A stretch of DNA of 64,000 nucleotides from an uncultured delta proteobacterium (GTDB taxonomy: Bacteria > Desulfobacterota > Binatia > Binatales > Binataceae), in the NCBI GenBank assembly GCA_963833025.1, contig CAWHWI010000003.1:618338-682337 (forward strand), given 5' to 3'. How positions within the stretch are numbered: position 1 is the first letter of the stretch; each line of letters begins with the position of its first letter. The notes under the pieces were generated by a model that saw only the letters and a program-made list of their open reading frames with translations, did not search any database and was not told the origin of the DNA. The position numbers and the translations under genes were made by a program. Below are positions 1,034 to 61,359 of this stretch, piece by piece.

Positions 1034-1160
1034 GTTCTAACAGGGACGAAGTCCCGCATCTTTATCTTAGTACTGGGTGCAGGGGTCACCCCTGCCCAAG
1101 GAGGTGTGGAACCCACGGTGGGTTCCACGTTTCAATTAAATGATTTACCCTTCCCCCTCC
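1034..1160 (+). repeat. multi-hairpin intergenic repeat element, copy 1 (modules B-C-D plus tail)
   Basis: Contains ctaacagggacgaagtcccgcatc, gcaggggtcacccctgc and gtggaacccacggtgggttccac followed by an attaaatgattt-cccttcc tail. Homologous to copies at 22803, 34116, 59631 and 60714. Confidence 0.85.
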
Positions 1161-14058: not shown

Positions 14059-14099
14059 CTAAGGAAACAATATCCTGCCCGCACAACGCCCGCAATTCA

Positions 14100-14510
14100 G
14101 GCAGAATCAAGCGCGGGGCTGCGCGCCCCGCACCCGCGGCAGGGGTGACCCCTGCACCCGGTACGGGGAGAAGAGGCGGCCTTCGCCCTATTCCTAACCT
14201 CTCCTTGTCCGAGGAGAGGTCGGCGCGAGCCGAAGGTGAGCGACGGGAGAGGTGCAACGCTGGCCGAACAGTTGCGCGTATTTGTGCTGCTGTCGGGCGG
14301 TGGAGTCAGTGTCTTTGCATTGCGGTTAAACGAGTCGGTCTGGTGGGCTGTCAGGCGTTGCACCTCACCCGGCGACACCGCTGCGCGGCTTACGCCGACC
14401 TCTCCTCGGACAAGGAGAGGTTAGGAACAGCGCGTCAGCCCGCATCTTTCTTCTTTCTTGAAACTGGGTGCAGGGGTCACCCCTGCCGAGGGTGCGGGGC
14501 GAGGAGCCCC
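14100..14510. repeat. composite foldback element with ~115-bp inverted-repeat arms, each containing an A-module and a C-like hairpin, around a ~170-bp centre
   Basis: Left arm 14100-14220 is the reverse complement of right arm 14394-14510. Both include cctaacctctcc..ggagagg and gcaggggt(c/g)acccctgc. The centre has a nested inverted repeat ggtgcaacgc / gcgttgcacc. Confidence 0.8.
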
Positions 14511-14514
14511 GCGT

Positions 14515-14748
14515 CTAATTCTTCCTCCAGCGCTCGCGGACGTCGAGCGCTGGCCCCGCCAGCGGGTTGCCGACCAGTAGCAGAAGTCCGACCGCGCCGA
14601 CCGCCAGCCCGCATCCAAGCCACCAGAGCGAGCGGTACTCGACGCCGAGTGCCAGCATCGCCAGCGCCCACAACGGAATGATTAGCGAGGCGACGAAGCG
14701 CATCAGCGCGCTAATCGCATGCTCGGCCTGTTCAGCGCGGTCATCCAT
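14515..14748 (-). CDS. small membrane protein (2 predicted TM helices), hypothetical
   Basis: 77-aa ORF with hydrophobic segments LIIPLWALAMLALGV and LAVGAVGLLLLV; stop abuts the foldback element. Confidence 0.4.
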   Translation of the reverse strand: MDDRAEQAEHAISALMRFVASLIIPLWALAMLALGVEYRSLWWLGCGLAVGAVGLLLLVGNPLAGPALDVRERWRKN

Positions 14749-20488: not shown

Positions 20489-21541
20489 TCACCTGTCCAC
20501 GTGCTCCGTGTAAGGACTGGAAAAGACGAATTCCGTGACGTCGCCCGCGGTCGTGATTCGCCCCACCTTGCCGTTGGGCTCGGTGAACCAGAGGTTGCCG
20601 TCGGGGCCGGCCGTGATGAAAGTTGCCATCGACTTTGCGGGCATCGGGAACGCCGTGAAGTCGCCGCCGGGAGTCAGGCGATAGATCAGTTGCGCGCGAA
20701 TCACAGTGATCCAGAGATTTTTGTCGGCGCCCGCCGCGATTCCGAGAGGCACTCCTGTCGTGGGCAGCGCGAACTCCGTGATGAAACCGTCGGGTGTGAT
20801 CCTGCCAATTTTGCTGGCCTGCGGCTGGGTGAACCACACGTTACCGTCGGCGCCTAGCGCCATCATCGCGGGGCGGCTGTCGGGCAGCAGGATTGCGAAT
20901 TCCTTGACGTTCCCCGAGATGGTGACGCGCGCGATACGATTAACCTTGTCTTCGGCGAACCACAGATTGCCGTCGCTGCCACCGACTATTTCGGCGGGAC
21001 CCGTCCCCTTGAGCAGCTCGATCTCGGTCAGAGTGCCGGTGGTGCTGAGGCGTCCGATGCGATTGCCGGAATGCTCGGTGAACCACAAATTGCCGTCGCG
21101 ACCCGAAGTGATTCCCGCCGGTCCGCTGTCCGAATGAGGCAATTTGACGTACGCGATTTTTCCGTCGGGAGCGACGCGGCCGATGCGGTTGCCGAGCGTA
21201 TCGGTGAACCACACTGCGCCGTCGGGGCCGGCGGTGATTCGCTCGGCGAATCCGTCGGGATCGATCCGAAAACGCTTGGTGGCGCCGTACGGAGTCATCT
21301 GTCCTATCGCGTCGCCCTGGTACTCGGTGAACCACAGGTTGCCGTCGAGGCCCGCCGTGATTGCGTACGGCGCATGCGTGCCGACGGGCGCTCCGGTCGG
21401 CGTCGGCTGCGCGCTCGGAACGGCCGCGGCGCTGATGTTCCCCGAGGGCGACGGTCGCTTCGCGGCGCATCCCGCTACGATCGCGAGCGCGGCGGCAAAA
21501 ATCGTGACCGTCAGTGCGCGGCTGATCGAGGGATTGCTCAA
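20489..21541 (-). CDS. Vgb (streptogramin lyase)-like beta-propeller lipoprotein; likely TTG start at 21541 overlapping upstream stop (TTGA)
   Basis: Signal peptide with lipobox AIVAGC and repeated DGNLWFTE propeller motifs. Confidence 0.68.
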   Translation of the reverse strand: MSNPSISRALTVTIFAAALAIVAGCAAKRPSPSGNISAAAVPSAQPTPTGAPVGTHAPYAITAGLDGNLWFTEYQGDAIGQMTPYGATKRFRIDPDGFAERITAGPDGAVWFTDTLGNRIGRVAPDGKIAYVKLPHSDSGPAGITSGRDGNLWFTEHSGNRIGRLSTTGTLTEIELLKGTGPAEIVGGSDGNLWFAEDKVNRIARVTISGNVKEFAILLPDSRPAMMALGADGNVWFTQPQASKIGRITPDGFITEFALPTTGVPLGIAAGADKNLWITVIRAQLIYRLTPGGDFTAFPMPAKSMATFITAGPDGNLWFTEPNGKVGRITTAGDVTEFVFSSPYTEHVDR

Positions 21542-22725
21542 TTGACGATCCGATTGGCTCTCAACTCGGAAATCTCGCCCGCGCCGAATCCGAACTCGCC
21601 GAGAATTTCGTCGGTGTGCTGTCCCAGGTCGGGCGCATGGCGCCATAACTCCGGCTCGGTGCGCGAAAATCGCGCGGGCGATCGCACGGCGCGGACGCGT
21701 CCCGCCCGTGGATGCTCGTATTCGAAAAACGTTTCATTCGCGACGAACTGCGGATCGTTCCAGATCGAGTCGTAGTCGTTGACCGGCCCGCATGGAACGT
21801 CGGCGGCCTCGATCCGCTCGAGCCAATACGCAGAGGGCTGAGTCGGGAACAGCGTGATCAGGCTCTTGATCGATCGCCTCACTCGGTCCGGCCGCGGCTC
21901 GTCGCCTTCGAACCATTCCGGATGCCCAACCGCCTTGAGAATCGCCGTCCAATGCTTGTCGGTCAGCGGTGCAATCGTAATGAAGCCGTCCGCCGTCTGA
22001 AACGGCTCGAGCGTGTTCATCGACGGTGGCACGCCGGCGTCGTGCGGAAGATAAGTGTGGCGCGACGCCGTGTCGGGCATCAGGTAGTAGGCGACGGCGT
22101 CGATCATCGCGATCTTGAGATGCTGTCCTTTGCCACTGCGCTGCGACTCGGTCAGCGCCGCGAGTATCGAAATTGCTGCCGTCATGGCAGTGACCTTGTC
22201 GCCGAGAATATTCTTGACGGCGCGCGGCCGGCCCTGCGTGCGCTGCGAGGTCATCACTCCCGCCATCCCCTGGATAATCGGATCGTAAGCGGGCTTGTTG
22301 ACCGACGGCCCCGAAAAACCGTAGCCGGCGATCGAGCAATAGACAATTTTCGGATTGCGCGCCGCGACCGCCTCGTAGCCGACGCCCAGCCGATCGACAA
22401 CTCCGGGCCGTACGTTCTGCACGACGACGTCGGCCCGCTCAGCCATCTTGAGAAAGACCTCAGCGGCGCCCGGCTGCTTGAGGTCGAGCATCATCGCGCG
22501 CTTGTTGCGATTCCAGTTCAGGATGCTCACCGTGACGCCGCCACGCTCGCGCCCGGTCAGCATCCGCGACACGTCGCCGTCGGGCGGCTCGATTTTTATT
22601 ACGTCGGCGCCGAGGTCACCGAGCATCATGGTGCAGAACGGTCCCGACACCACCATGCTCAAATCAAGTACGCGGATTCCTTCCAGCGGTCCCATCGATG
22701 CCTCCGGGAAAATTGCTCCAAGCAC
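21538..22725 (-). CDS. CoA transferase family III (CaiB/BaiF)
   Basis: GIRVLDLSMVVSGPFCTMMLGDLGADVIKIEPP signature. Confidence 0.85.
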   Translation of the reverse strand: MLGAIFPEASMGPLEGIRVLDLSMVVSGPFCTMMLGDLGADVIKIEPPDGDVSRMLTGRERGGVTVSILNWNRNKRAMMLDLKQPGAAEVFLKMAERADVVVQNVRPGVVDRLGVGYEAVAARNPKIVYCSIAGYGFSGPSVNKPAYDPIIQGMAGVMTSQRTQGRPRAVKNILGDKVTAMTAAISILAALTESQRSGKGQHLKIAMIDAVAYYLMPDTASRHTYLPHDAGVPPSMNTLEPFQTADGFITIAPLTDKHWTAILKAVGHPEWFEGDEPRPDRVRRSIKSLITLFPTQPSAYWLERIEAADVPCGPVNDYDSIWNDPQFVANETFFEYEHPRAGRVRAVRSPARFSRTEPELWRHAPDLGQHTDEILGEFGFGAGEISELRANRIVN

Positions 22726-22802: not shown

Positions 22803-22912
22803 TCTAACTTTTAACAGGGACGAAGTCCCGCATCTTCTCTTAATACTGGGTGCAGGGGTCACCCCTGCCGAAGGAAGCGTGAAACCCACCGCGGGTTTCA
22901 CATCTAATTACG
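22803..22912 (+). repeat. multi-hairpin intergenic repeat element, copy 2 (B-C-D)
   Basis: ttttaacagggacgaagtcccgcatc...gcaggggtcacccctgccgaaggaagcgtgaaacccaccgcgggtttcac. Confidence 0.85.
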
Positions 22913-24449
22913 TGAACCGCCCACTCTTGACTGCGATTTCGCGCAGCTTCACGACGCGCGATTGTATCGCGCGGCTCCGGCGCATCCGCTCCAGCGTCAG
23001 CGGTATCCGATACGTCCAGTTCGAATCGCTGATCGTTCCCGGCCGATTGATTCGCGCACTCCATCCGAACAAATCCTGAATCGGAATGATCACCAGCTGC
23101 GACGGCGCCGCATACAGCATGGCCAGGATTGCATCGCGCGCCGATTCCTCGAGCATCCGGCGCGGATTCACTTTGCCCTCGAGCCCGAGCTCGCGCACGA
23201 ACTTCTCGCGCTCTGCGATAGGCTGCGAATGCCACCAAACGGTCAGAGGTTCAGTGTCATGCGTGCCGGTAGTCGCGAGCGAAAGTTCGGGATAGGTCGA
23301 CGGGCCGAGAAATGGTTCGTCGGCGTGGCCCCAGTCGCGCTCCCACTGCATCACCTTATATCCCGGCACGCCCAGCCGCGTGAGCGATTGGCGCACCCAC
23401 GGCGGCACGGTGCCGAGGTCTTCCGCGATCAGCTCGGTCGCCCCGACCTCCTGCTTGATAGTGCGAATCACTTCTTCGCCCTGGCGCAGTTGATCGACTT
23501 CGTCTATCGGCGTGAAAATTCCCGGCGCGTCCAGTTCGGAGCCGAAATTGAAAGTTCGATAAAGCCCAACGACGTGATCGATTCGAAGCAAATCGTAAAG
23601 CGCGCTGGCATGACGCGCACGCGCGCGCAGCACCTTGAATCCCTCCGCGCGCATCTGAGACCAGTTCGGCAGCGGCAGGCCCCATCGCTGTCCCTTGGGA
23701 TTGAAACCGTCGGGGGGAGCGCCCACGGTGCGCGACAAATCGAACTCGCCCTGGTTTGCCCACACCTCGGCGCTGTCGCTGCACGGCGAGAACGCGAGAT
23801 CTCCGCCGATAAACGCGCCGTGCGACGATGCGTACGCGCGCATCTCCGACCACTGCCGATGCGCGACGAACTGCCAGTGGCAGTACATCTCGATCGCGTC
23901 GGCCAGATCGCGGCGCGCGAGCGCGAGCGCGGCGGAATCGCGCTTCGCAATTTCAGCCGGCCACGTTTCCCAGCTGGTCCAGTTGAAGCGCTCCTTGAGC
24001 GCGCGAAACAGCGCATAGTCATGAAGCCAGTACGAGTTGGCCTCGATGAAGGCGTCGAGCTGCGCGCCGTCATCGCGTCCGCCGCGCGCGCGAGTCGCCC
24101 GGTACGCGCGCTCGAGCAACACAAACTTCTCCCGCCGTGTGATCGCGCGCGGCACAAAGCGCGCCTTCCCGACCGCCTGGCGTGCGCGCGCCTGCACGAC
24201 CCGCCCGACTCCCGGCAGCCCGCTTACCGATATGTACATCGGATCGATCGCCATCACGCTCATCGCGCTGTACGGGCTGAGATCGTCAGGCCCCGTCTCG
24301 TCCAACGGCAGCAGCTGAATCACGCGATGACCCATCGACAGCGCGAAGTCGATCATCGGCGCGAGACTGAGGATTTCGCCGCGTCCGAGATCGTCGCGCG
24401 TGCGAATCGAGAACAGTGGAATCAGGATTCCCGCGGACCGCGTCAGCAT
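22908..24449 (-). CDS. malQ: 4-alpha-glucanotransferase (amylomaltase, GH77)
   Basis: MLTRSAGILIPLFSIRTRDDLGRGEI...GDLAFSP...IIPIQDLFGW GH77 motifs. Confidence 0.9.
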   Translation of the reverse strand: MLTRSAGILIPLFSIRTRDDLGRGEILSLAPMIDFALSMGHRVIQLLPLDETGPDDLSPYSAMSVMAIDPMYISVSGLPGVGRVVQARARQAVGKARFVPRAITRREKFVLLERAYRATRARGGRDDGAQLDAFIEANSYWLHDYALFRALKERFNWTSWETWPAEIAKRDSAALALARRDLADAIEMYCHWQFVAHRQWSEMRAYASSHGAFIGGDLAFSPCSDSAEVWANQGEFDLSRTVGAPPDGFNPKGQRWGLPLPNWSQMRAEGFKVLRARARHASALYDLLRIDHVVGLYRTFNFGSELDAPGIFTPIDEVDQLRQGEEVIRTIKQEVGATELIAEDLGTVPPWVRQSLTRLGVPGYKVMQWERDWGHADEPFLGPSTYPELSLATTGTHDTEPLTVWWHSQPIAEREKFVRELGLEGKVNPRRMLEESARDAILAMLYAAPSQLVIIPIQDLFGWSARINRPGTISDSNWTYRIPLTLERMRRSRAIQSRVVKLREIAVKSGRFT

Positions 24450-28958: not shown

Positions 28959-29339
28959 ATGGTTCAGCAGCACACATCGTCCGAGCACCTCAACGCGACT
29001 TTCTCGGCGCTCGCCGATCCCACTCGCCGCGCGATCCTCGCTCGCCTCGCGTCGGGCGAGACTTCCGTGTCCGAGCTGGCCGAGCCCTTCGAGATGAGCA
29101 TGCCCGCCATCTCCAAGCACCTGAAGGTGCTGCAGCGCGCGGGCCTGATCGAACGCGGCCGCGAGGCGCAATGGCGTCCGTGCCGGCTCGCCGCCGGTCC
29201 GCTCAAGGACGCCTCGGACTGGCTCGATCGCTATCGCCGTTTCTGGGAGGAGAGCTTCGATCGCCTCGAGGATTATCTGCGCGAGCTGCAGAAGCGCGAA
29301 TCACAAAAGAAGGAGACCAAAAATGGCCGCAAAAAGTAG
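28959..29339 (+). CDS. ArsR/SmtB family transcriptional regulator
   Basis: FSALADPTRRAILARLASGETSVSELAE...SMPAISKHLKVLQRAGLI wHTH. Confidence 0.85.
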   Translation: MVQQHTSSEHLNATFSALADPTRRAILARLASGETSVSELAEPFEMSMPAISKHLKVLQRAGLIERGREAQWRPCRLAAGPLKDASDWLDRYRRFWEESFDRLEDYLRELQKRESQKKETKNGRKK

Positions 29340-29844
29340 CGCCGCCGCTCAATCCGACTCGCGCGAGCTGGTCGTCACCCGCGTCCTCGACGCGCCGCGC
29401 GCCCTGGTGTGGAAAGCACTCACCGAGCCCGAGCGCCTCGAGCACTGGTGGGGGCCGAAGGGCTTCACTTCAAAGGTCCACAAGCTCGAGCTGCGCCCCG
29501 GCGGCATCTTCCTCTACAGCCAACGCACGCCTGACGGCCGCGAGATGTGGGGCAAATGGGTCTATCGCGAAATCGTCGCGCCCGAGCGGCTGGTGAGCGT
29601 CTCTTCCTTCACCGATGAGAAGGGTAATTCGATCCCGCATCCTTTGATCCCGAACTGGCCGCTGGAGATTCTGGGCGTGTCCACGTTCACCGAGCGTCAG
29701 GGCAAGACCACGATGGTCGTGCGGATGGTCCCGGTAAACGCGACCGAGTCGGAGCGCAAGACTTTCGAAGAACACCTCAATTGGATGGAAGAGGGTTTTG
29801 CCGGAACTCTCGAAAAGCTCGACAAATACCTGGCGTCACTCTGA
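29323..29844 (+). CDS. SRPBCC/AHSA1 (Aha1-like) domain protein, paralog 1
   Basis: RVLDAPRALVWKALTEPERLEHWWGPKGF signature. Confidence 0.8.
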   Translation: MAAKSSAAAQSDSRELVVTRVLDAPRALVWKALTEPERLEHWWGPKGFTSKVHKLELRPGGIFLYSQRTPDGREMWGKWVYREIVAPERLVSVSSFTDEKGNSIPHPLIPNWPLEILGVSTFTERQGKTTMVVRMVPVNATESERKTFEEHLNWMEEGFAGTLEKLDKYLASL

Positions 29845-29878: not shown

Positions 29879-29989
29879 ATGCAACTCAATCCCTATCTGA
29901 ACTTCGATGGCAACTGCGCCGCCGCGTTCAAGTTCGTCGATCAATTCGGCACGCCCTGGATGATCAACTGCGAGGGCGAAGCGCGATGA
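29879..29989 (+). pseudogene. 36-codon remnant of a PhnB/VOC-like gene (N-terminus only), translationally coupled (ATGA) to next gene
   Basis: MQLNPYLNFDGNCAAAFKFVDQFG matches the conserved N-terminus of PhnB-like VOC proteins, then stops. GAAGGAG SD upstream. Confidence 0.5.
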
Positions 29990-30480
29990 CTTCCGCAAGG
30001 CCGACGATATCCGATTCCGCGCCGGAAGATACCTCGGATCGCGAGATCGTCGTCACCCGAGTTTTCGACGCGCCGCGAGCGCTCGTGTTCAAGTTGTGGA
30101 CTGATCCGCAACATGTCGCGCGATGGTGGGGGCCGAATGGCTTTAGCACCACGACTTATGAGATGGACGTGCGGCCGGGCGGCGTGTGGCGCTTCGTCAT
30201 GCACGGACCCGACGGCCGGGATTATCAGAACAAGGTCGCATATGTCGAAATCGCCGAGCCCGAGCGACTGGTTTACAAGCATGTCTCCGGTCCGCAATTT
30301 CAAATGACGGTGACCTTTGCCGACGCCGGCGACAAGACGAGGCTCACGGCGCGGATGCTCTTCGAGTCAGCCACCCTGCGCAACAAGGTCATCGAAGAAT
30401 TCGGGGCCGTCGAGGGACTCAAGCAGACTCTCGGACGCCTCGACGATTATGTGAACCATACTAAGGAGAGCATCCGATGA
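29986..30480 (+). CDS. SRPBCC/AHSA1 domain protein, paralog 2
   Basis: RVFDAPRALVFKLWTDPQHVARWWGPNGF. Confidence 0.8.
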   Translation: MTSARPTISDSAPEDTSDREIVVTRVFDAPRALVFKLWTDPQHVARWWGPNGFSTTTYEMDVRPGGVWRFVMHGPDGRDYQNKVAYVEIAEPERLVYKHVSGPQFQMTVTFADAGDKTRLTARMLFESATLRNKVIEEFGAVEGLKQTLGRLDDYVNHTKESIR

Positions 30481-30929
30481 CTTCAAACACCGAAGTTACA
30501 GTTGGCGATCGCGAGCTCACCATCACGCGCATCTTCGACGCGCCCCGCCCGCTGGTTTTCTTCGCGTGGTCAAGACCCAAACATCTGATGCGTTGGTTCG
30601 CGCCCAACAACTTCACCGTGTCGGAGTGCGAGATGGACTTCCGCGAGGGCGGAAAGTTCCGGCTGTGCATGCGCGGCTTCGGCAAGGACCATTGGATGAA
30701 CGGCGTCTTTCGCGAAATCGTCAAGCCGGAGCGAATCGTCTGGAGCAGCTTGTTGGATAACGACACCAACGAAGTGGTCACGACGGCGACGTTCACCGTT
30801 ATGGGCGGCGGCAAGACCATGCTCACAGTGCATCAGACCTACTCGATCGAAACTGATTCGACCCGCGGTGCACCACAGGGATGGTCCGAAACCCTCGATC
30901 ATCTCGCCGAATTACTGGCGGACGCCTGA
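30477..30929 (+). CDS. SRPBCC/AHSA1 domain protein, paralog 3
   Basis: RIFDAPRPLVFFAWSRPKHLMRWFAP; ATGA overlap with paralog 2. Confidence 0.8.
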   Translation: MTSNTEVTVGDRELTITRIFDAPRPLVFFAWSRPKHLMRWFAPNNFTVSECEMDFREGGKFRLCMRGFGKDHWMNGVFREIVKPERIVWSSLLDNDTNEVVTTATFTVMGGGKTMLTVHQTYSIETDSTRGAPQGWSETLDHLAELLADA

Positions 30930-30954: not shown

Positions 30955-31425
30955 ATGGGAGCAGCAGTTAACCTGGTAAGCGAGCCTGCGGATCGCGTGC
31001 TTAAAATCGAGCGCGTCTTCGACGCGCCGCGCAGTCTCGTCTTCAAAGCCTGGACCGAGCCCGAGCACATCGCGAAATGGTGGGGTCCGCGCGGCTTCAC
31101 CAGCACCGTTCTCAAAAACGATCTGCGCCCGGGCGGCGCCTATCGAATCCACATGCGCGGACCCGACGGCGATCACTGGACGCAGGGCATCTATCGCGAA
31201 GTGGTCCCTCCCGAGCGGCTGGTCATGGTCGGGAGCTGGGCCGATGCGCAGGGCAATCCAACGCGCCCCGAAACGACGCTGACGCTGCTGTTCGAGGATC
31301 TCGGCGGCAAGACCAAGCTCACTCTGCACAACGCGGTCTTCGAATCGGTCACGGCGCGCGATTTGCACCAGGGCGGATGGACCAGCGCGCTCGATTGTCT
31401 CGCCGAATACCTGGCAACTGCCTGA
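30955..31425 (+). CDS. SRPBCC/AHSA1 domain protein, paralog 4
   Basis: RVFDAPRSLVFKAWTEPEHIAKWWGPRGF. Confidence 0.8.
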   Translation: MGAAVNLVSEPADRVLKIERVFDAPRSLVFKAWTEPEHIAKWWGPRGFTSTVLKNDLRPGGAYRIHMRGPDGDHWTQGIYREVVPPERLVMVGSWADAQGNPTRPETTLTLLFEDLGGKTKLTLHNAVFESVTARDLHQGGWTSALDCLAEYLATA

Positions 31426-33214: not shown

Positions 33215-34105
33215 ATGCAAAACCCGCAGGAATACTATAAGAGCGAAGGGCCAATGACAGCTCTGGGAGCGCACGCGGAAGAATTCCGCGCGATGCCCAC
33301 GGACCTCGCCTCGCTATGCGAGGTCGTACAGGGCTTGCTGATTCATCGCGATATTGCGCCATGGCTGTACGGCCTCACGCTGACCGAGGCGCAGCGCGAC
33401 GACGGCAACATCCGCCCGATCGCGAAAATGCTGACGCGCATTCACGAGCTCGATTCGCGCCCGATCACGAGCGCGCGCGACGTCGGCCACCGGCTCCCCA
33501 GCGTATGCCGTCATTTTTCGCTGATGCTCAGCGCCATACTCCGGTATCAGGGCATACCGGCGCGGCCGCGATGCGGCTTCGGCGCCTACTTCACGCCGGG
33601 CAAGTTCGAAGACCATTGGGTGTGCGAGTATTGGAACGCCGGCGAGAAGCGCTGGATATTGGTGGACGCGCAGCTCGACTCGATTCAGCGCAAAGCCTTG
33701 AACATCAATTTCAACCCGCTCGACGTGCCGCGCGACCGCTTCATAATCGCGGGCAACGCGTGGCAGATGTGCCGCACCGGCGCCGCCGATCCCGCCAACT
33801 TCGGGCTCACGCACGTCCACCTGCAGGGGATGTGGTTCATCGCCGGCAACGTGGTCCGCGATCTCGCGTCGCTCAACAAAATGGAACTGCTACCATGGGA
33901 CGTCTGGGGCTTGATGGATATGAACGACGCCGCACTGACCGACGAGAAAAAATCCCTACTCGATCGCGTCGCAACTCTAACCCTCGCGGGCGACAACGCG
34001 TTCCCCGAAGTCCGCGCAATCTACAACGACGATCGCCTCCGCGTCCCACCACTTGTCTTCAACGCACTGCGCAACGCCCCCGAACCAATCGCGAGCGAGA
34101 ACTAA
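33215..34105 (+). CDS. transglutaminase-like cysteine protease domain protein (start may be ATG 33254)
   Basis: CRHFSLMLSAILRYQGIPARPRCGF...HWVCEYW...WILVDAQ, consistent with the Cys-His-Asp transglutaminase core. Confidence 0.72.
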   Translation: MQNPQEYYKSEGPMTALGAHAEEFRAMPTDLASLCEVVQGLLIHRDIAPWLYGLTLTEAQRDDGNIRPIAKMLTRIHELDSRPITSARDVGHRLPSVCRHFSLMLSAILRYQGIPARPRCGFGAYFTPGKFEDHWVCEYWNAGEKRWILVDAQLDSIQRKALNINFNPLDVPRDRFIIAGNAWQMCRTGAADPANFGLTHVHLQGMWFIAGNVVRDLASLNKMELLPWDVWGLMDMNDAALTDEKKSLLDRVATLTLAGDNAFPEVRAIYNDDRLRVPPLVFNALRNAPEPIASEN

Positions 34106-34115
34106 CGCTTAACAA

Positions 34116-34230
34116 GTTCTAACAGGGACGAAGTCCCGCATCTTCTCTTGGTACTGCGTGCAGGGGTCACCCCTGCCGAAGGAAGCGTGAAACCCACCGC
34201 GGGTTTCACATTCAATTGAGTTCCTCCGCC
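34116..34230 (+). repeat. multi-hairpin intergenic repeat element, copy 3 (B-C-D)
   Basis: gttctaacagggacgaagtcccgcatc...gcaggggtcacccctgccgaaggaagcgtgaaacccaccgcgggtttcacattcaattga. Confidence 0.85.
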
Positions 34231-34240
34231 CTCTCCTGTC

Positions 34241-35752
34241 TCACCGACCGCCCGCTGCTGGCGCCGGCGCCGCCGGGCGCGACGGCTTTGGCATGTGGAT
34301 GTAGAGCTTGTCCGCCGCCGGACGGCCGTCGGTATGCATCGACGGCGGACGCATCGCGTACTTCACTTCGCGCGCGTGCTCGGCGAACTGCCGATCCGGG
34401 TTGTACACGCTGTTGAACTTCCACAGCATCTTGATGAAGTTGGTCTGCCCCTTCAGCGCGAGCTTGCCCGCGATCGACGCTACCGACTTCAGCGCCGCGA
34501 ACCCAAGATGCTTGCGGTTGAGCACGTCCTGCGTCTTCACCAGCTCCTGGTAGAACTGCAGCAGCGGCAACTTGGTCGGCAGCACCGCGTGCTGGATGTC
34601 GTACAGCCGGTAGTCGAGCGTCGTCAGCTTGCGCGATTCGGTGAACCACAGCTCGGTGCCGGGATACGGCGTCGCCACCGTCAGATGAACGATCTCGGGG
34701 ATGCTGATCGCCCATTCGCGAATCACCTCGAAGCGCTTCACGTCCCACGACGGGTCCGCGATCAGGTTGACCGCGACGGTCAAGCCAATCTCGCGCGCCA
34801 CTTCGAGCGCCTTGAAGTTGACGCCCATCGACGAGCGCTTGCGATGCAGCTTCAGGCCTTCTTCGTCGATCGCTTCGAGGCCCAGGAACATGTACTCCAT
34901 GCCGAGCTTGCGCCAGTAGCGGAACACTTCCGGATTGCGGCACAGTACGTCGGCGCGAGTCTCGAGGTAGTACTGCTTTTTGATTTTGCGCTTTTCGATT
35001 TCGTGCCCGATCGCGAATCCATGCTCCGGATGGATGAACGCGACGTCGTCCACGATGAAGACGTTCGGCTCTTTGATCGACAGCATGTCTTCGGCCGCCG
35101 CTTCCGGCGTCGATTTGCGGTAGCTGCGTCCGTAAAACGTCCACGCGCTGCAGAACGAGCAATCCCACGGGCATCCGCGGGTGAACTCGATCGACGCGCA
35201 CGGATCGAGCACGCCGATAAAATATTTGTTGCGCCGGCGCCCGAGATCGCGCGCGGGAAAAAACTTGTCGAGATCGTCGAGCATGACCGGCGTCGGCCCG
35301 GAGCCTTGCGTCGTCAACACGCCCGGAACTTTGCCAATCGAGCCGGTGCCGATTGCGTCGAGGAGCATCGGGGTCGCCGTCTCGCCCTCGCCGCGGATGA
35401 CCGCGTCGATCGCGCCGTCCGCATGCTCCAGAATTTCGTCGGCGACGAAGGAGCCGCTGTGCCCGCCGGTGAAGACGAAGCAGTCCTTCATCAGGCGCTT
35501 CACGTCCTTGGCGAGATCGATCACCTCGGGCACGTTGGCGAGGTAGTTGAGCGAGAAGCCGACCGCATTGGGCCGGAAGCTCTCGAGCTCGGCAAACAGA
35601 TCACGATGCTTGAAAATCTGCAGGTCGAGGATTCTGACGTCATGGCCGGCCGCGCGCGTGGCCGCCGCCACCCGCTCCATTCCCAGCGGTTCGAGCCGCA
35701 AATAAATCTCGCTGTACATAAGCGGACTTGGATGTACGAATAGGACCCGCAT
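34241..35752 (-). CDS. B12-binding domain radical SAM protein (candidate hopanoid-associated HpnJ-like)
   Basis: N-terminal B12-binding region (VLFVHPSPLMYSEIYLRL) and CxxxCxxC motif FTRGCPWDCSFC. Lies near hpn genes. Confidence 0.78.
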   Translation of the reverse strand: MRVLFVHPSPLMYSEIYLRLEPLGMERVAAATRAAGHDVRILDLQIFKHRDLFAELESFRPNAVGFSLNYLANVPEVIDLAKDVKRLMKDCFVFTGGHSGSFVADEILEHADGAIDAVIRGEGETATPMLLDAIGTGSIGKVPGVLTTQGSGPTPVMLDDLDKFFPARDLGRRRNKYFIGVLDPCASIEFTRGCPWDCSFCSAWTFYGRSYRKSTPEAAAEDMLSIKEPNVFIVDDVAFIHPEHGFAIGHEIEKRKIKKQYYLETRADVLCRNPEVFRYWRKLGMEYMFLGLEAIDEEGLKLHRKRSSMGVNFKALEVAREIGLTVAVNLIADPSWDVKRFEVIREWAISIPEIVHLTVATPYPGTELWFTESRKLTTLDYRLYDIQHAVLPTKLPLLQFYQELVKTQDVLNRKHLGFAALKSVASIAGKLALKGQTNFIKMLWKFNSVYNPDRQFAEHAREVKYAMRPPSMHTDGRPAADKLYIHMPKPSRPAAPAPAAGGR

Positions 35753-57204: not shown

Positions 57205-57237
57205 AGCTCTCCTGCGATCAGGTTGAAGAAAAAAAAT

Positions 57238-57948
57238 TTAGGAGGACGGCGTGCTGCCGCCCTCCGATGTGGATGTCGCCGACGGACCGAACAGCCACTC
57301 GCCCACCATCGCCACCGCCCCTTCGGGGTCGATCGCATTTGCGCCCATGAACAAATATTCGATCAGCAATCCGTTCAGCGCCGACAGCAGGAACGCCGCC
57401 GCCGACTCGGGAGTCGTCCGCCGCGCGCAGATTCCCTTCTGCTGCGCGCCCGCGATCAGCTCGACCAGCATCGCGCGATACCCGCTGTAGAGCTTGAGCA
57501 CCTGCTCGTTCATGCTCTCCGACAGCTTCTGGTCGTGAAGCATCTGTGCCAGAAAAAAACGCACCGAGCTCGCGTTGTCGCGCACGAACGACAGGTACGA
57601 CTCGACCAGCTTCTCGATCTGCGCGCGCTCGTCCATCACCGCCGCTTCTTCCGCAAAATCGATAAAGTACGGCTCCAGCAGACGGTTCAGCACCGCCACG
57701 AACAGCTCTTCCTTGGTCTTGAAATGCCAGAAAATCAGTGCCTTGCTGACGTGCGCCTCGCGCGCCACTTCCGACATCGACGTCTCATGAAACCCGCGAC
57801 TGGCAAACAGCCGCATCGCCGCCTTCAGGATCTCGTCGCGCGAATCCTGAGACACCGTCCGCGGCTCCGCAATACCCACTTTGATCTGCGAAACGCCCAT
57901 ATCCCGGCTTCCGACCCCCGCTCTACTCCTATCGTCGCCAGTAGCCAC
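57238..57948 (-). CDS. TetR/AcrR family transcriptional regulator
   Basis: N-terminal HTH ...FASRGFHETSMSEVAREAHVSKALIFWHF. Confidence 0.8.
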   Translation of the reverse strand: MATGDDRSRAGVGSRDMGVSQIKVGIAEPRTVSQDSRDEILKAAMRLFASRGFHETSMSEVAREAHVSKALIFWHFKTKEELFVAVLNRLLEPYFIDFAEEAAVMDERAQIEKLVESYLSFVRDNASSVRFFLAQMLHDQKLSESMNEQVLKLYSGYRAMLVELIAGAQQKGICARRTTPESAAAFLLSALNGLLIEYLFMGANAIDPEGAVAMVGEWLFGPSATSTSEGGSTPSS

Positions 57949-59363: not shown

Positions 59364-59603
59364 ATGTTCGCATGGATTCTAATCGGACTAATCTCGGGAT
59401 GGCTGGCCGGCAAAATCCTCAACGGCAACGGCTACGGAATGATGTGCGACATCGGACTAGGCCTGCTCGGCGGAGTAGTCGGCGGAATGATATTTCAAGT
59501 GCTGGGCGTGCAAGCCCACAACTTCATAGGCGCCATCCTGATGTCCACGGCAGGCGCCACCGCACTGGTGGTAGCAACCAGGATACTACGCGACGAAATC
59601 TGA
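59364..59603 (+). CDS. GlsB/YeaQ/YmgE family small membrane protein
   Basis: MFAWILIGLISGWLAGKIL...GLLGGVVGGMIF; GGGAGGA SD. Confidence 0.82.
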   Translation: MFAWILIGLISGWLAGKILNGNGYGMMCDIGLGLLGGVVGGMIFQVLGVQAHNFIGAILMSTAGATALVVATRILRDEI

Positions 59604-59630
59604 AAAAGTCTTCTCGTATTTCTTGTCCTG

Positions 59631-59797
59631 ATCCTAAGCTCTCCTTGTCCGAGGAGAGGTTAGGATCTTCCCCTTTACAAACTTCTAACAGGGACGAAGT
59701 CCCGCATCTTTCTTAGCACTGGGTGCAGGGGTCACCCCTGCCGAAGGAAGTGTGAAACCCACCGCGGGTTTCACATTAAACAATTGATTTCCCCTTC
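59631..59797 (+). repeat. multi-hairpin intergenic repeat element, copy 4, full length (A-B-C-D-tail)
   Basis: tcctaagctctccttgtccgaggagaggttagga...ctaacagggacgaagtcccgcatc...gcaggggtcacccctgc...gtgaaacccaccgcgggtttcacattaaacaattgatttcccc. Confidence 0.88.
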
Positions 59798-60649
59798 CTA
59801 TACATACAACGACGCGATCTTCTTCAGCGTCCCCTCCGCACTCTCGAACGTGAGAGCTCCCAACCCCGCGACAAACCGCCCCGCGCCCGCCGCGGCAAAC
59901 TCCTTCAGCCCGTCCTGCACCTGCGCGCGATCGCCGCGGATTCCGCCCATGATCGTGATGTCCAACTCCGCGAAATTCCTGCCGGCCGCCGCGCACTCGC
60001 GCTTGAGTTCATCGACGCGCGTTTTCAATTGCGCCGCGTTCAACGCGATAGGGCACCATCCGTCCGCCCACTTCGCCACGCGCTTGAGCGCGTTCTTGTC
60101 CAGGCTGCCGATCAGCACGGGAGGCCCCGACTTCTGCGCCGGTTTCGGCAGCGACTTCACCGGCGGAAACTTGACGTACTTGCCGTCGCATGACGATTGA
60201 TCTTCGGTCCACAGCTTGCGCATCGCGGCGACAATCTCGGCGGTTTCGCTCCAGCGATGAGGGAAATCGACGCCGAACAAATCGCTCTCCTCGCGCAGCC
60301 ATCCCGCGCCGATCCCGAACAGCAAGCGGCCGCCCGAGTACGTGTCCAGAGTCGCGATCTGCTTGGCCAGCGCAAGCGGCTCATGCTCCGGGACGAGACA
60401 GATTCCGGTGGCAAGTTTCAGATTTTTGGTAACCGCAGCCGCCATGCTGAGCGCGATCATCTGATCGGCCATCGTGAAGTACTGCGGCGGAATCGGCCCT
60501 CCGGTAGGAAACTGCTGGACGGGATTAGCGGGCATCGCCGGATGCTCAGGCACCCAAATCGACTCGAACCCAAGCGATTCTGCGACTCGTGCAAATTCCG
60601 CAGGATGAGCATTCGTGCCGGTGAACGGCGTCAGCAATCCAATTTTCAT
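59798..60649 (-). CDS. LLM class (luciferase-like) F420-dependent oxidoreductase
   Basis: MKIGLLTPF...LPKPAQ.. LLM fold; AAGGAG SD before ATG 60649. Confidence 0.8.
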   Translation of the reverse strand: MKIGLLTPFTGTNAHPAEFARVAESLGFESIWVPEHPAMPANPVQQFPTGGPIPPQYFTMADQMIALSMAAAVTKNLKLATGICLVPEHEPLALAKQIATLDTYSGGRLLFGIGAGWLREESDLFGVDFPHRWSETAEIVAAMRKLWTEDQSSCDGKYVKFPPVKSLPKPAQKSGPPVLIGSLDKNALKRVAKWADGWCPIALNAAQLKTRVDELKRECAAAGRNFAELDITIMGGIRGDRAQVQDGLKEFAAAGAGRFVAGLGALTFESAEGTLKKIASLYV

Positions 60650-60713
60650 TTTTTCTCTCCTTGTCAGAGTCCCCAGTTCTAACAAATCCTCCCGTGAATA
60701 ACCTCACGCCCGG

Positions 60714-60882
60714 GTCCTAACCTTTCCTTGTCCGAGGAGAGGTTAGGATCTTCCCCTAACAAAGTTCTAACAGGGACGAAGTCCCGCATCTTTTCTTAGT
60801 ACTGGGTGCAGGGGTCACCCCTGCCCAAGGAAGCGTGAAACCCAGGAGGAGTTTCACATTAAATTAAGTGATTTCCCGTTCC
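60714..60882 (+). repeat. multi-hairpin intergenic repeat element, copy 5, full length (A-B-C-D-tail)
   Basis: gtcctaacctttccttgtccgaggagaggttagga...gttctaacagggacgaagtcccgcatc...gcaggggtcacccctgc...gtgaaacccaggaggagtttcacattaaattaagtgatttccc. Confidence 0.88.
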
Positions 60883-61359
60883 CTATTTCCACCCGAAGAA
60901 ATCCTTCGCAGTGACGAACTTCGCGACGCCGGCTGCTTCGCCCGCCAGCCGGTCGACTTCCTGATCGCCGACCATTGTCGACGACGCCAGATCGACGCCG
61001 TACAAATCCGCGAGCTCCGTGATCATGCCGCCCTTCGGCTTGCGACATTCGCAGTAGTCGTCGTCCGTATGCTGGCAGACTTGCCATCCGGTCAGGATAT
61101 CGCCGAGTTGGTTGTCGAGTTCCTCGAGCGCAGCCTCGACTTTCTCCGCCGTGAGACGGCCGCGCCGGATTCCGGCCTGGTTGGTCACGACGAACATCAG
61201 ACGGTTATGCAGTGGCCGGAGCTTCTCGGCCACGCCGGGCAGCAGTTCGACTACGATATTTCCGTCGGCGTCGAGCGGAATCTCGCGCGACTCGTTCAGC
61301 TTGACGAGCGTGCCGCCCAGATCGAAGAACAGCGCCGCGTTGCCATTCGGATTGGCCAT
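60883..61359 (-). CDS. HAD-IIIA family phosphatase (GmhB/histidinol-phosphatase-like)
   Basis: FFDLGGTLV motif I and VTNQAG motif II. Confidence 0.72.
   Translation of the reverse strand: MANPNGNAALFFDLGGTLVKLNESREIPLDADGNIVVELLPGVAEKLRPLHNRLMFVVTNQAGIRRGRLTAEKVEAALEELDNQLGDILTGWQVCQHTDDDYCECRKPKGGMITELADLYGVDLASSTMVGDQEVDRLAGEAAGVAKFVTAKDFFGWK

Follow-up and report, generated by a model that had tools for sequence, protein, structure and literature searches.

In Escherichia coli, bacterial interspersed mosaic elements (BIMEs) combine one palindrome with other short motifs and occur as singlets, inverted pairs and clusters. These elements, like the repetitive extragenic palindromes known as REP sequences, are transcribed in 3′ untranslated regions or within operons, where they stabilize the upstream mRNA. 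The present analysis concerns small multi-hairpin intergenic repeats in a 64-kb stretch of DNA from an uncultured member of the Binataceae (contig CAWHWI010000003.1; hereafter the window; G+C 61.8%). Each repeat is organized around a hairpin, C, usually with one of several B or other hairpins on its 5′ side and one of several D hairpins on its 3′ side. The repeats are real, and form a previously undescribed family that is common across uncultured Binataceae (phylum Binatota) genomes. Although the family is new, its kind is familiar: it behaves like the REP, BIME and REPIN repeats of enterobacteria and pseudomonads.

The likeness to the REP and BIME sequences of Escherichia coli and its relatives extends to several properties. 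In both cases a short GC-rich palindrome is present in many copies and at high density in intergenic DNA, mainly after genes and in some copies within about 15 nt of the stop codon; it is found in singlets, inverted pairs, clusters and mosaics with other short motifs, and its stems are kept by compensatory change. However, the Binataceae sequence is unrelated and its host belongs to a different phylum. The Binataceae unit, about 105 nt long, also differs in comprising three hairpins of which the outer ones are interchangeable, in being polar, with its D end against the stop codon, and in showing a covariation between linker and loop that hints at a pseudoknot. Neither a 5′ tetranucleotide of the GTAG type nor, in ~1 Mb of flanking DNA, a cognate REP-associated tyrosine transposase (RAYT) was found for it.

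The terms REP and REPIN-RAYT are used here as defined previously (Bertels and Rainey 2011, PMC3116915; PMC3337134). As in REPIN-RAYT systems, an inverted doublet of the Binataceae unit (C-D2 type; L080 versus L016, see below) forms a long hairpin that behaves as one insertion/deletion (indel) unit, and copies persist vertically at orthologous sites. Unlike REPINs, the Binataceae copies are mostly singlets, their doublets measure ~270–430 nt rather than ~100 nt, and no RAYT gene was found in the ~1 Mb of DNA flanking them. The Correia repeat-enclosed elements of Neisseria, and similar intergenic repeats with terminator or processing functions, are likewise small and mobile, place hairpins and terminator-like signals beside genes and can alter their 3′ ends, but Correia elements have terminal inverted repeats and TA target duplications, and the Binataceae units have neither. 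Intrinsic (Rho-independent) terminators, bidirectional ones included, are resembled by hairpin B2, in which a GC hairpin lies between an A-tract and a T-tract on either strand, and by B1 and D2, which are GC hairpins followed by T-rich tracts; unlike terminators, hairpins C and D1 of the Binataceae lack a T tract, and the whole is a three-hairpin cassette in a dispersed repeat family.

A mosaic family built around hairpin C

The palindrome GCAGGGG-NNN-CCCCTGC occurs seven times in the window against 0.01 expected, the B motif ACAGGGACGAAGTCCCGCATCTT five times against 0 expected, and the D palindrome five times against 0.04 expected (motif search). With counts so far above chance, the B-C-D copies that a preliminary description had placed on the plus strand are confirmed at approximately 1034–1160, 22803–22912, 34116–34230, 59680–59797 and 60760–60882. 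These five full copies can be aligned over about 105 nt, from TTCTAACA to an AT-rich tail. Checking the genes of the window also upheld the claim that every copy is intergenic, all seven C hairpins included.

The preliminary description had proposed that other genomes be searched for further copies and that Rfam be consulted for a well-characterized family. An exact search with the 22-nt core of hairpin C, GGGTGCAGGGGTCACCCCTGCC, in one genome per species found at least 117 stretches in other genomes. Among the matches listed, nearly all are from soil and peat metagenome-assembled genomes labelled Candidatus Binatus, Binataceae or “uncultured delta proteobacterium”, and six are from Polymorphobacter, an alphaproteobacterium. 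The window is syntenic with four of the matched loci, at 81–93% nucleotide identity, which places it in a Binataceae genome. Comparisons were made with fetched loci of about 8 kb, designated by L and a number (~1 Mb of flanking DNA in total), in which genes were called by a composition-based method. In the window, the Rfam covariance models gave zero matches at the gathering threshold, and the sole match up to E = 10 was a chance-level viroid motif (E = 0.96). Neither of the two outcomes that the preliminary description had named as refuting, a lack of further copies and a hit to a known family, was seen. The literature searched held nothing relevant on the hairpin sequence or on Binatota repeats. 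Four IMG/VR contigs classed as viral (L118–L121) also bear the element; because L118 and L121 are syntenic with a Binataceae chromosomal locus (L032), these two probably derive from a chromosome and not from phage.

The family is a mosaic. In a set of 148 copies, nothing is constant except hairpin C and the bases flanking it, ACTGGGT-GCAGGGG-TCA-CCCCTGC-C. On the 5′ side the partner of C is B1 (GGGAC-GAA-GTCCC, then GCATCTT), B2 (GCAAAATGGCG-TCCT-CGCCATTTTGC) or another hairpin, and on the 3′ side it is D1, D2 (GCGGGGC-GCGCA-GCCCCGC, then a T-rich tail), D3 or nothing. The combinations include B1-D1 (40 copies), B2-D1 (28), other-D1 (27), B2-D3 (11) and B1-D2 (8), with more besides. The D-side end is not fixed, the tail being of type T1, of type T2 or almost absent. 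Hairpin C occurs singly, in inverted doublets and in tandem arrays, the last consisting of units of a variable hairpin plus C with a period of 55–85 nt (L055, 732–883; L059, 3191–3379; L057, 2212–2290 and 3323–3400). One array unit carries a compensatory change in the stem of C (GCAGGGC...GCCCTGC).

A further palindrome, module A, had been counted as part of the element, but it is an independent palindromic repeat family and that assignment is withdrawn. Module A reads CCTCTCC[C]-loop-[G]GGAGAGG, and a second small hairpin and GAAGGTGAGGG often come after it. In the window it lies beside copy 5 (59627–59674) and copy 6 (60710–60757), and stands alone at 2933–2953 between convergent genes (region 2925–2985). 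In the fetched Binataceae loci there are 33 further occurrences, mostly kilobases from hairpin C. At the site orthologous to copy 5 (L053) module A is missing, and the orthologue of copy 6 in the same locus has a diverged A-like palindrome together with ~210 nt more of palindromic inserts. The extra insert to the left of the copy 6 orthologue (L053, 5400–5620; not in the window) has long terminal inverted repeats, TTCAGCGCGCC...GATTTAAGATTCTG / CAGAATCTTGAATC...GCGCGCTGAA, and has the look of a further small palindromic element that is nested at the B side.

The composite element reported at 14100–14510 does contain the repeat, but it is a nested inverted repeat in which two C-D2 units lie on opposite strands, so that one C is on the minus strand. 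The left arm (14099–14162, minus strand) comprises a D2 hairpin and a C hairpin at 14139–14155, whose loop reads TGA on the plus strand. The right arm (14463–14526, plus strand) has C at 14470–14486 and D2 at 14490–14516, then AATTCTTCC, and adjoins the stop of a minus-strand open reading frame (ORF; 14515–14748). The two arms are 88% complementary. They enclose an insert (14184–14434) made of an inverted pair of module A copies (14184–14232 and 14386–14434) around an innermost inverted repeat (14241–14260 and 14355–14374). Orthologous doublets in L034, L035 and L080 are without the nested module A insert; in orthologous and similar doublets elsewhere, B1 hairpins occupy the middle of the doublet in place of the module A pair.

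Position, age and mobility

At all six loci of the window the D end adjoins or contains the stop codon of a minus-strand gene. At the other loci, the D1 end faces a stop in 37 cases, a gene start in 18 and neither in 17, and the B side faces stops (20) and starts (21) about equally. Stops lie 28–68 nt from hairpin C, i.e., in the tail or just past it, and in several cases the stop codon of the converging gene is supplied by the element tail itself (e.g., TAA in ACTTAA). The cases in which a D end faces a start look genuine, with −10-like boxes between the element and the start codon.

The five B-C-D copies do share one orientation, as had been noted, but describing it as constant whatever the flanking genes was misleading, since the D ends all meet minus-strand stops: the uniform plus-strand pattern arises because the window contains a run of minus-strand genes. 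Nor is a fixed orientation a property of the family. Consecutive copies in one locus lie on the same strand in 18 cases and on opposite strands in 15, and orientation therefore follows the local gene, not the replichore. The GC skew in element orientation is negative in 72 of 103 loci.

The high identity between copies had been taken as a sign of recent spread, an interpretation that comparison with other species does not support. Copies 2–6, which make up five of the six window loci, are present at the same sites in L034, L094, L071 and L053. Between those species the third-codon-position identity of the flanking genes is 0.71–0.86 and the identity of the element core is 0.85–0.93 (three copies scored); neighbouring intergenic DNA outside the element is barely alignable. 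The copies at shared sites therefore predate the species splits, and are old and either constrained or homogenized, rather than recent.

Gain and loss can also be seen as differences between species. In L016 two convergent genes have abutting stops (TAG, TCA), and at precisely this boundary L080 carries an inverted C-D2 doublet of 271 nt, which is present or absent as a whole. Single-unit indels, seen among C-D1 singlets, are represented by filled sites in L088, L108 and L001, with empty syntenic sites in L090, L055 and L082. At four filled/empty junction pairs there was neither a target duplication nor a terminal inverted repeat, and a single unit begins with GTTCTAACA... and finishes with ...AAGTGATTTCCCCTTCCC, which do not form an inverted repeat. 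ORF listing and Pfam searches of the DNA between inverted copies found no transposase.

The copies of the window are placed as follows. Copy 1 (B1-C-D1, 1034–1160, plus strand) has B1 at 1043–1055, C at 1079–1095 and D1 at 1106–1128, then an AT-rich tail; its D1 is the GTGGAACCC/GGGTTCCAC variant, of linker/loop type II. It lies between aroQ and rsmI, both on the minus strand (Pfam), and its tail contains the stop codon (1145–1147) of the rsmI-like gene (1145–2023). The second locus is the doublet described above. Copy 3 (B1-C-D1, 22803–22912, plus strand) has B1 at 22817–22829, C at 22852–22868 and D1 at 22879–22901; its neighbours are a CoA-transferase gene and malQ, both on the minus strand (Pfam), and the stop codon (22908–22910) of the latter, a 4-alpha-glucanotransferase gene (22908–24449), falls within the tail. 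Copy 4 (B1-C-D1, 34116–34230, plus strand), with B1 at 34125–34137, C at 34160–34176 and D1 at 34187–34209, is flanked by convergent genes at 33215–34105 (plus strand) and 34241–35752 (minus strand).

In the region 59400–61100, copies 5 and 6 are near-identical elements on either side of a luciferase-like gene. Copy 5 (B1-C-D1, 59680–59797, plus strand) has B1 at 59691–59703, C at 59725–59741 and D1 at 59752–59774. Like copy 4, it lies between convergent genes (Pfam), and its T1-type tail runs straight into the stop codon (59798–59800) of the minus-strand luciferase-like gene. Copy 6 (B1-C-D1, 60760–60882, plus strand) has B1 at 60773–60785, C at 60808–60824 and D1 at 60835–60857, the last with one stem mismatch and the loop AGGAG. 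It lies between a HAD-hydrolase gene and the luciferase-like gene, both on the minus strand (Pfam), and its T1 tail runs into the stop codon of the former (60883–60885).

At 60676–60688, ~30 nt upstream of the start of the luciferase-like gene, AGTTCTAACAAAT repeats the B1 5′ flank, but the hairpin is missing there. It is also kept in the orthologue L053, and its reverse complement, TGTTAGAAC, resembles an extended −10 box. A promoter reading of TGTTAGAAC, the reverse of the B1 5′ flank, is not supported for the family, as B1 copies show no preference for gene starts (13 stops, 10 starts). A reading of the tail as a site for integration host factor was rejected, because the match to the consensus is only partial and is confined to T1-type tails.

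Two other sets of repeats in the window are coding. Four tandem paralogous ORFs of ~150–173 amino acids (29323–29844, 29986–30480, 30477–30929 and 30955–31425) account for several direct-repeat families in the repeat scan. In the region 20500–21400, a repeat with a period of 123–126 nt, the core TCGGTGAACCACAGGTTGCCGTCG and about eight copies lies in a minus-strand ORF (20489–21646), which suggests a repeat-domain protein, possibly a propeller.

Covariation and terminator-like features

A 176-nt copy folds into four hairpins (−69.4 kcal/mol, z = −4.95), in agreement with the four palindromic modules of the preliminary description. The opposite strand of this copy folds about equally well. Base pairs were counted in an alignment of 96 D1-type copies, in which standard pairs fill 95% of stem cells, compared with 35–56% when the 3′ partners are slid by 1–3 columns. 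Pairs in the D1 stem switch between UA and CG (82/11), AU and GC (74/19), and GC and AU. The stem variants of B1 also covary (GGGAC/GTCCC, GGGGC/GCCCC and GGCC-GTAA-GGCC).

Covariation is also seen outside the stems. Column 37, one base past the end of the C stem, varies together with column 61, the third base of the D1 loop, with counts of 45 for G:C, 39 for C:G and 3 for other combinations. A C:G pair adjoins this linker-loop pair in 88 of the 96 copies, and a third subfamily, in which the linker is one base shorter, has CGC opposite the loop sequence GCG. On the C:G side the D1 loop has 11 variants, in which the non-pairing positions vary freely and the pairing bases are kept. Both states of the pair are seen on both D1 stem backgrounds, and at three orthologous sites both bases switch jointly between species. 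These three observations argue against a pattern that merely reflects two clonal subfamilies. The linker-loop covariation is read as a putative pseudoknot of 2–3 bp, in which the D1 loop would dock on the base of hairpin C, although the signal could be enlarged by gene conversion among copies.

Two further structures were considered. A helix between linker and tail (GGAAG/CTTCC) is plausible, yet no covariation was demonstrable for it. An arrangement like the hepatitis delta virus (HDV) ribozyme on the reverse strand, with the tail as P1, the D1 complement as P3/L3, the junction as P1.1 and the C complement as P4, was rejected because the D1 stem has 9–12 bp, compared with 3 bp in P3, and no HDV-family model scores.

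It had been stated that no hairpin is followed by a U tract and that there is no evident terminator function. Directly after B1 comes GCATCTTTTCTT and after D2 comes AATTCTTCC, and both hairpins are flagged by the terminator scan on the plus strand, so the former statement is incorrect; the latter is too strong for B1, B2 and D2. B2 presents an A-tract, a hairpin and a T-tract on both strands. The B1 stem has only 5 pairs, and overall the window contains no more terminator-like sites than shuffled sequences do. Elsewhere in the window, at 57231–57265 (minus strand), a canonical intrinsic terminator with a 10-bp GC stem followed by TAAATTTTTT overlaps the stop of an ORF (57238–57948); the host genome does use classical terminators packed against gene ends.

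In Polymorphobacter, hairpin C is identical over its 22 nt but has different conserved flanks and lies 12–36 nt from converging stop codons (L004, L029, L054, L064, L068 and L073). On the opposite strand of these loci, a long GC stem followed by TTGTTTG shortly past the stop codon resembles a canonical intrinsic terminator. The match suggests either a shared hairpin-specific factor or an origin of C as a terminator stem.

Competing explanations and significance

The best explanation of these observations is probably that the family is a Binataceae-specific mosaic repeat of the REP/BIME kind: non-coding, non-autonomous and mobile, and serving as a structure at gene 3′ ends. It has the many-copy intergenic palindrome of REP sequences, and the organization as singlets, inverted pairs, clusters and mosaics that is typical of BIMEs. 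Under this explanation, hairpin C would be the constant unit to which interchangeable 5′ (B1, B2 and others) and 3′ (D1, D2 and D3) hairpins are joined. Units would be gained and lost as single elements or as REPIN-like inverted doublets, would land at gene 3′ ends with the D end preferentially against the stop codon, and once placed would persist across species with their stems kept by compensatory change. They would be transcribed within 3′ untranslated regions. The stacked hairpins, the putative small pseudoknot between the C junction and the D1 loop, and the terminator-like B1, B2 and D2 may then terminate or insulate transcription and shield the 3′ end of the mRNA, by analogy with the REP and BIME sequences of Escherichia coli; B1, B2 and D2 would be the terminators, and C-D1 would form a stable pseudoknotted cap.

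Several observations weigh against this explanation. In about a third of cases the D end faces not a stop but a promoter with its gene start. REPINs are doublets, but D1 copies mostly stand as singlets, and a tblastn search of the ~1 Mb of flanks for RAYT-like or IS200 TnpA proteins returned nothing below E = 0.4, a weak negative given that the probes were approximate. Between inverted copies lie ordinary housekeeping genes, which code for an NAD-binding epimerase, an MFS transporter, PGK, TIM and a beta-propeller protein. With regard to an RNA role, C and D1 have no T tracts, so that termination is plausible only for B1, B2 and D2; the D1 stem has similar numbers of G-U (5) and A-C (3) combinations, which assign no strand; and of two possible extensions of the stem, each favours a different strand. 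REP sequences are not known to have a tertiary pair between linker and loop, and such a pair points instead to selection on a folded RNA.

This last point leads to the unlikely possibility that the C-D1 core, together with B, serves first of all as a functional structured RNA, namely a small-RNA or cis-acting 3′-untranslated-region module with a pseudoknot. It might, for example, be an exonuclease-resistant cap or a protein-binding site, present in many copies through selection at many genes rather than selfish mobility. The three complementary linker/loop solutions (CG/CG, CC/GG and CGC/GCG), in which pairing bases are kept and other loop positions vary, and their joint switching in orthologous copies speak for such an RNA. 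So do the occupation of the B position by unrelated hairpins, where structure is kept and sequence is not, the B1 loops on the pattern strand (GAA, GAAA and GUAA) that resemble GNRA loops, and the conservation of syntenic copies at or above the level of synonymous sites. However, Rfam has no matching family, wobble pairs give no consistent strand signal, orientation relative to the neighbouring gene is only ~2:1, and there is no conserved promoter. The shuffling of modules, the inverted doublets, the tandem arrays and the indel polymorphism are typical of repeat DNA, and gene conversion between subfamilies could inflate the covariation. A version that joins RNA function with mobility is likewise only a tentative proposal: C-D1 would be a compact pseudoknotted fold, with hairpin C stacked on a 2–3 bp helix of junction bases and the D1 loop, selected directly after the stops of hundreds of Binataceae genes as a new 3′-end protection or termination-coupled regulatory module, and delivered by a stop-targeting mobile element that needs neither a RAYT nor terminal repeats.

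Two explanations based on transposons fare less well. The units could be miniature derivatives of a single-strand DNA transposon of the IS200/IS605 or RAYT type, moved by cut-and-paste as folded single-stranded DNA, so that replication would set their orientation. The lack of terminal inverted repeats and target duplications, the hairpin-rich ends, the negative GC skew, and the behaviour of the inverted doublet as one mobile unit are all consistent with this, and the same 22-nt hairpin in an unrelated phylum (Polymorphobacter) would be expected if a hairpin-specific enzyme had been transferred. Nevertheless, such an origin is improbable. The counts of 18 same-strand and 15 opposite-strand neighbours weaken it, being incompatible with strict replichore orientation; the three hairpins are mutually unrelated, whereas in IS200/IS605 elements the subterminal hairpins of the left end and of the right end resemble each other; such elements also have a fixed target tetranucleotide, and the D-side junction here varies between T1, T2 and almost no tail; and no Y1 transposase was found in the sampled flanks. 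A classical miniature inverted-repeat transposable element (MITE), i.e., an insertion sequence of the DDE-transposase type that was shortened by deletion, has terminal inverted repeats and target-site duplications and spread recently, is highly improbable and already contradicted. The elements are small, uniform in size, intergenic and multi-copy, and the composite at 14.1–14.5 kb is bounded by long inverted repeats, but those arms are whole C-D2 units rather than transposon ends. The ends of single units are not inverted repeats, the four filled/empty comparisons show no target duplication, and the copies are old, being common to species with 14–29% third-position divergence. Of the earlier designation as MITE/REP-like, the REP-like part is thus retained on the strength of the high-copy intergenic palindromes, and the MITE part, for want of terminal inverted repeats and target-site duplications, is not.

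The Binatota are abundant in soil and peat, uncultured and known only from metagenome bins. In their genomes a repeat that recurs roughly once per 10 kb breaks up assemblies, shows where transcription units end, provides adjoining genes with stop codons and offers a lineage marker. The family extends a REP/BIME/REPIN-like organization to a new phylum, apparently without an obvious RAYT, and presents two testable oddities worth following up, the linker-loop pair that covaries and the insertion precisely at stop codons. Should both the pseudoknot and the role at 3′ ends be real, the family would offer a natural model of how mobile hairpins become gene-end signals.

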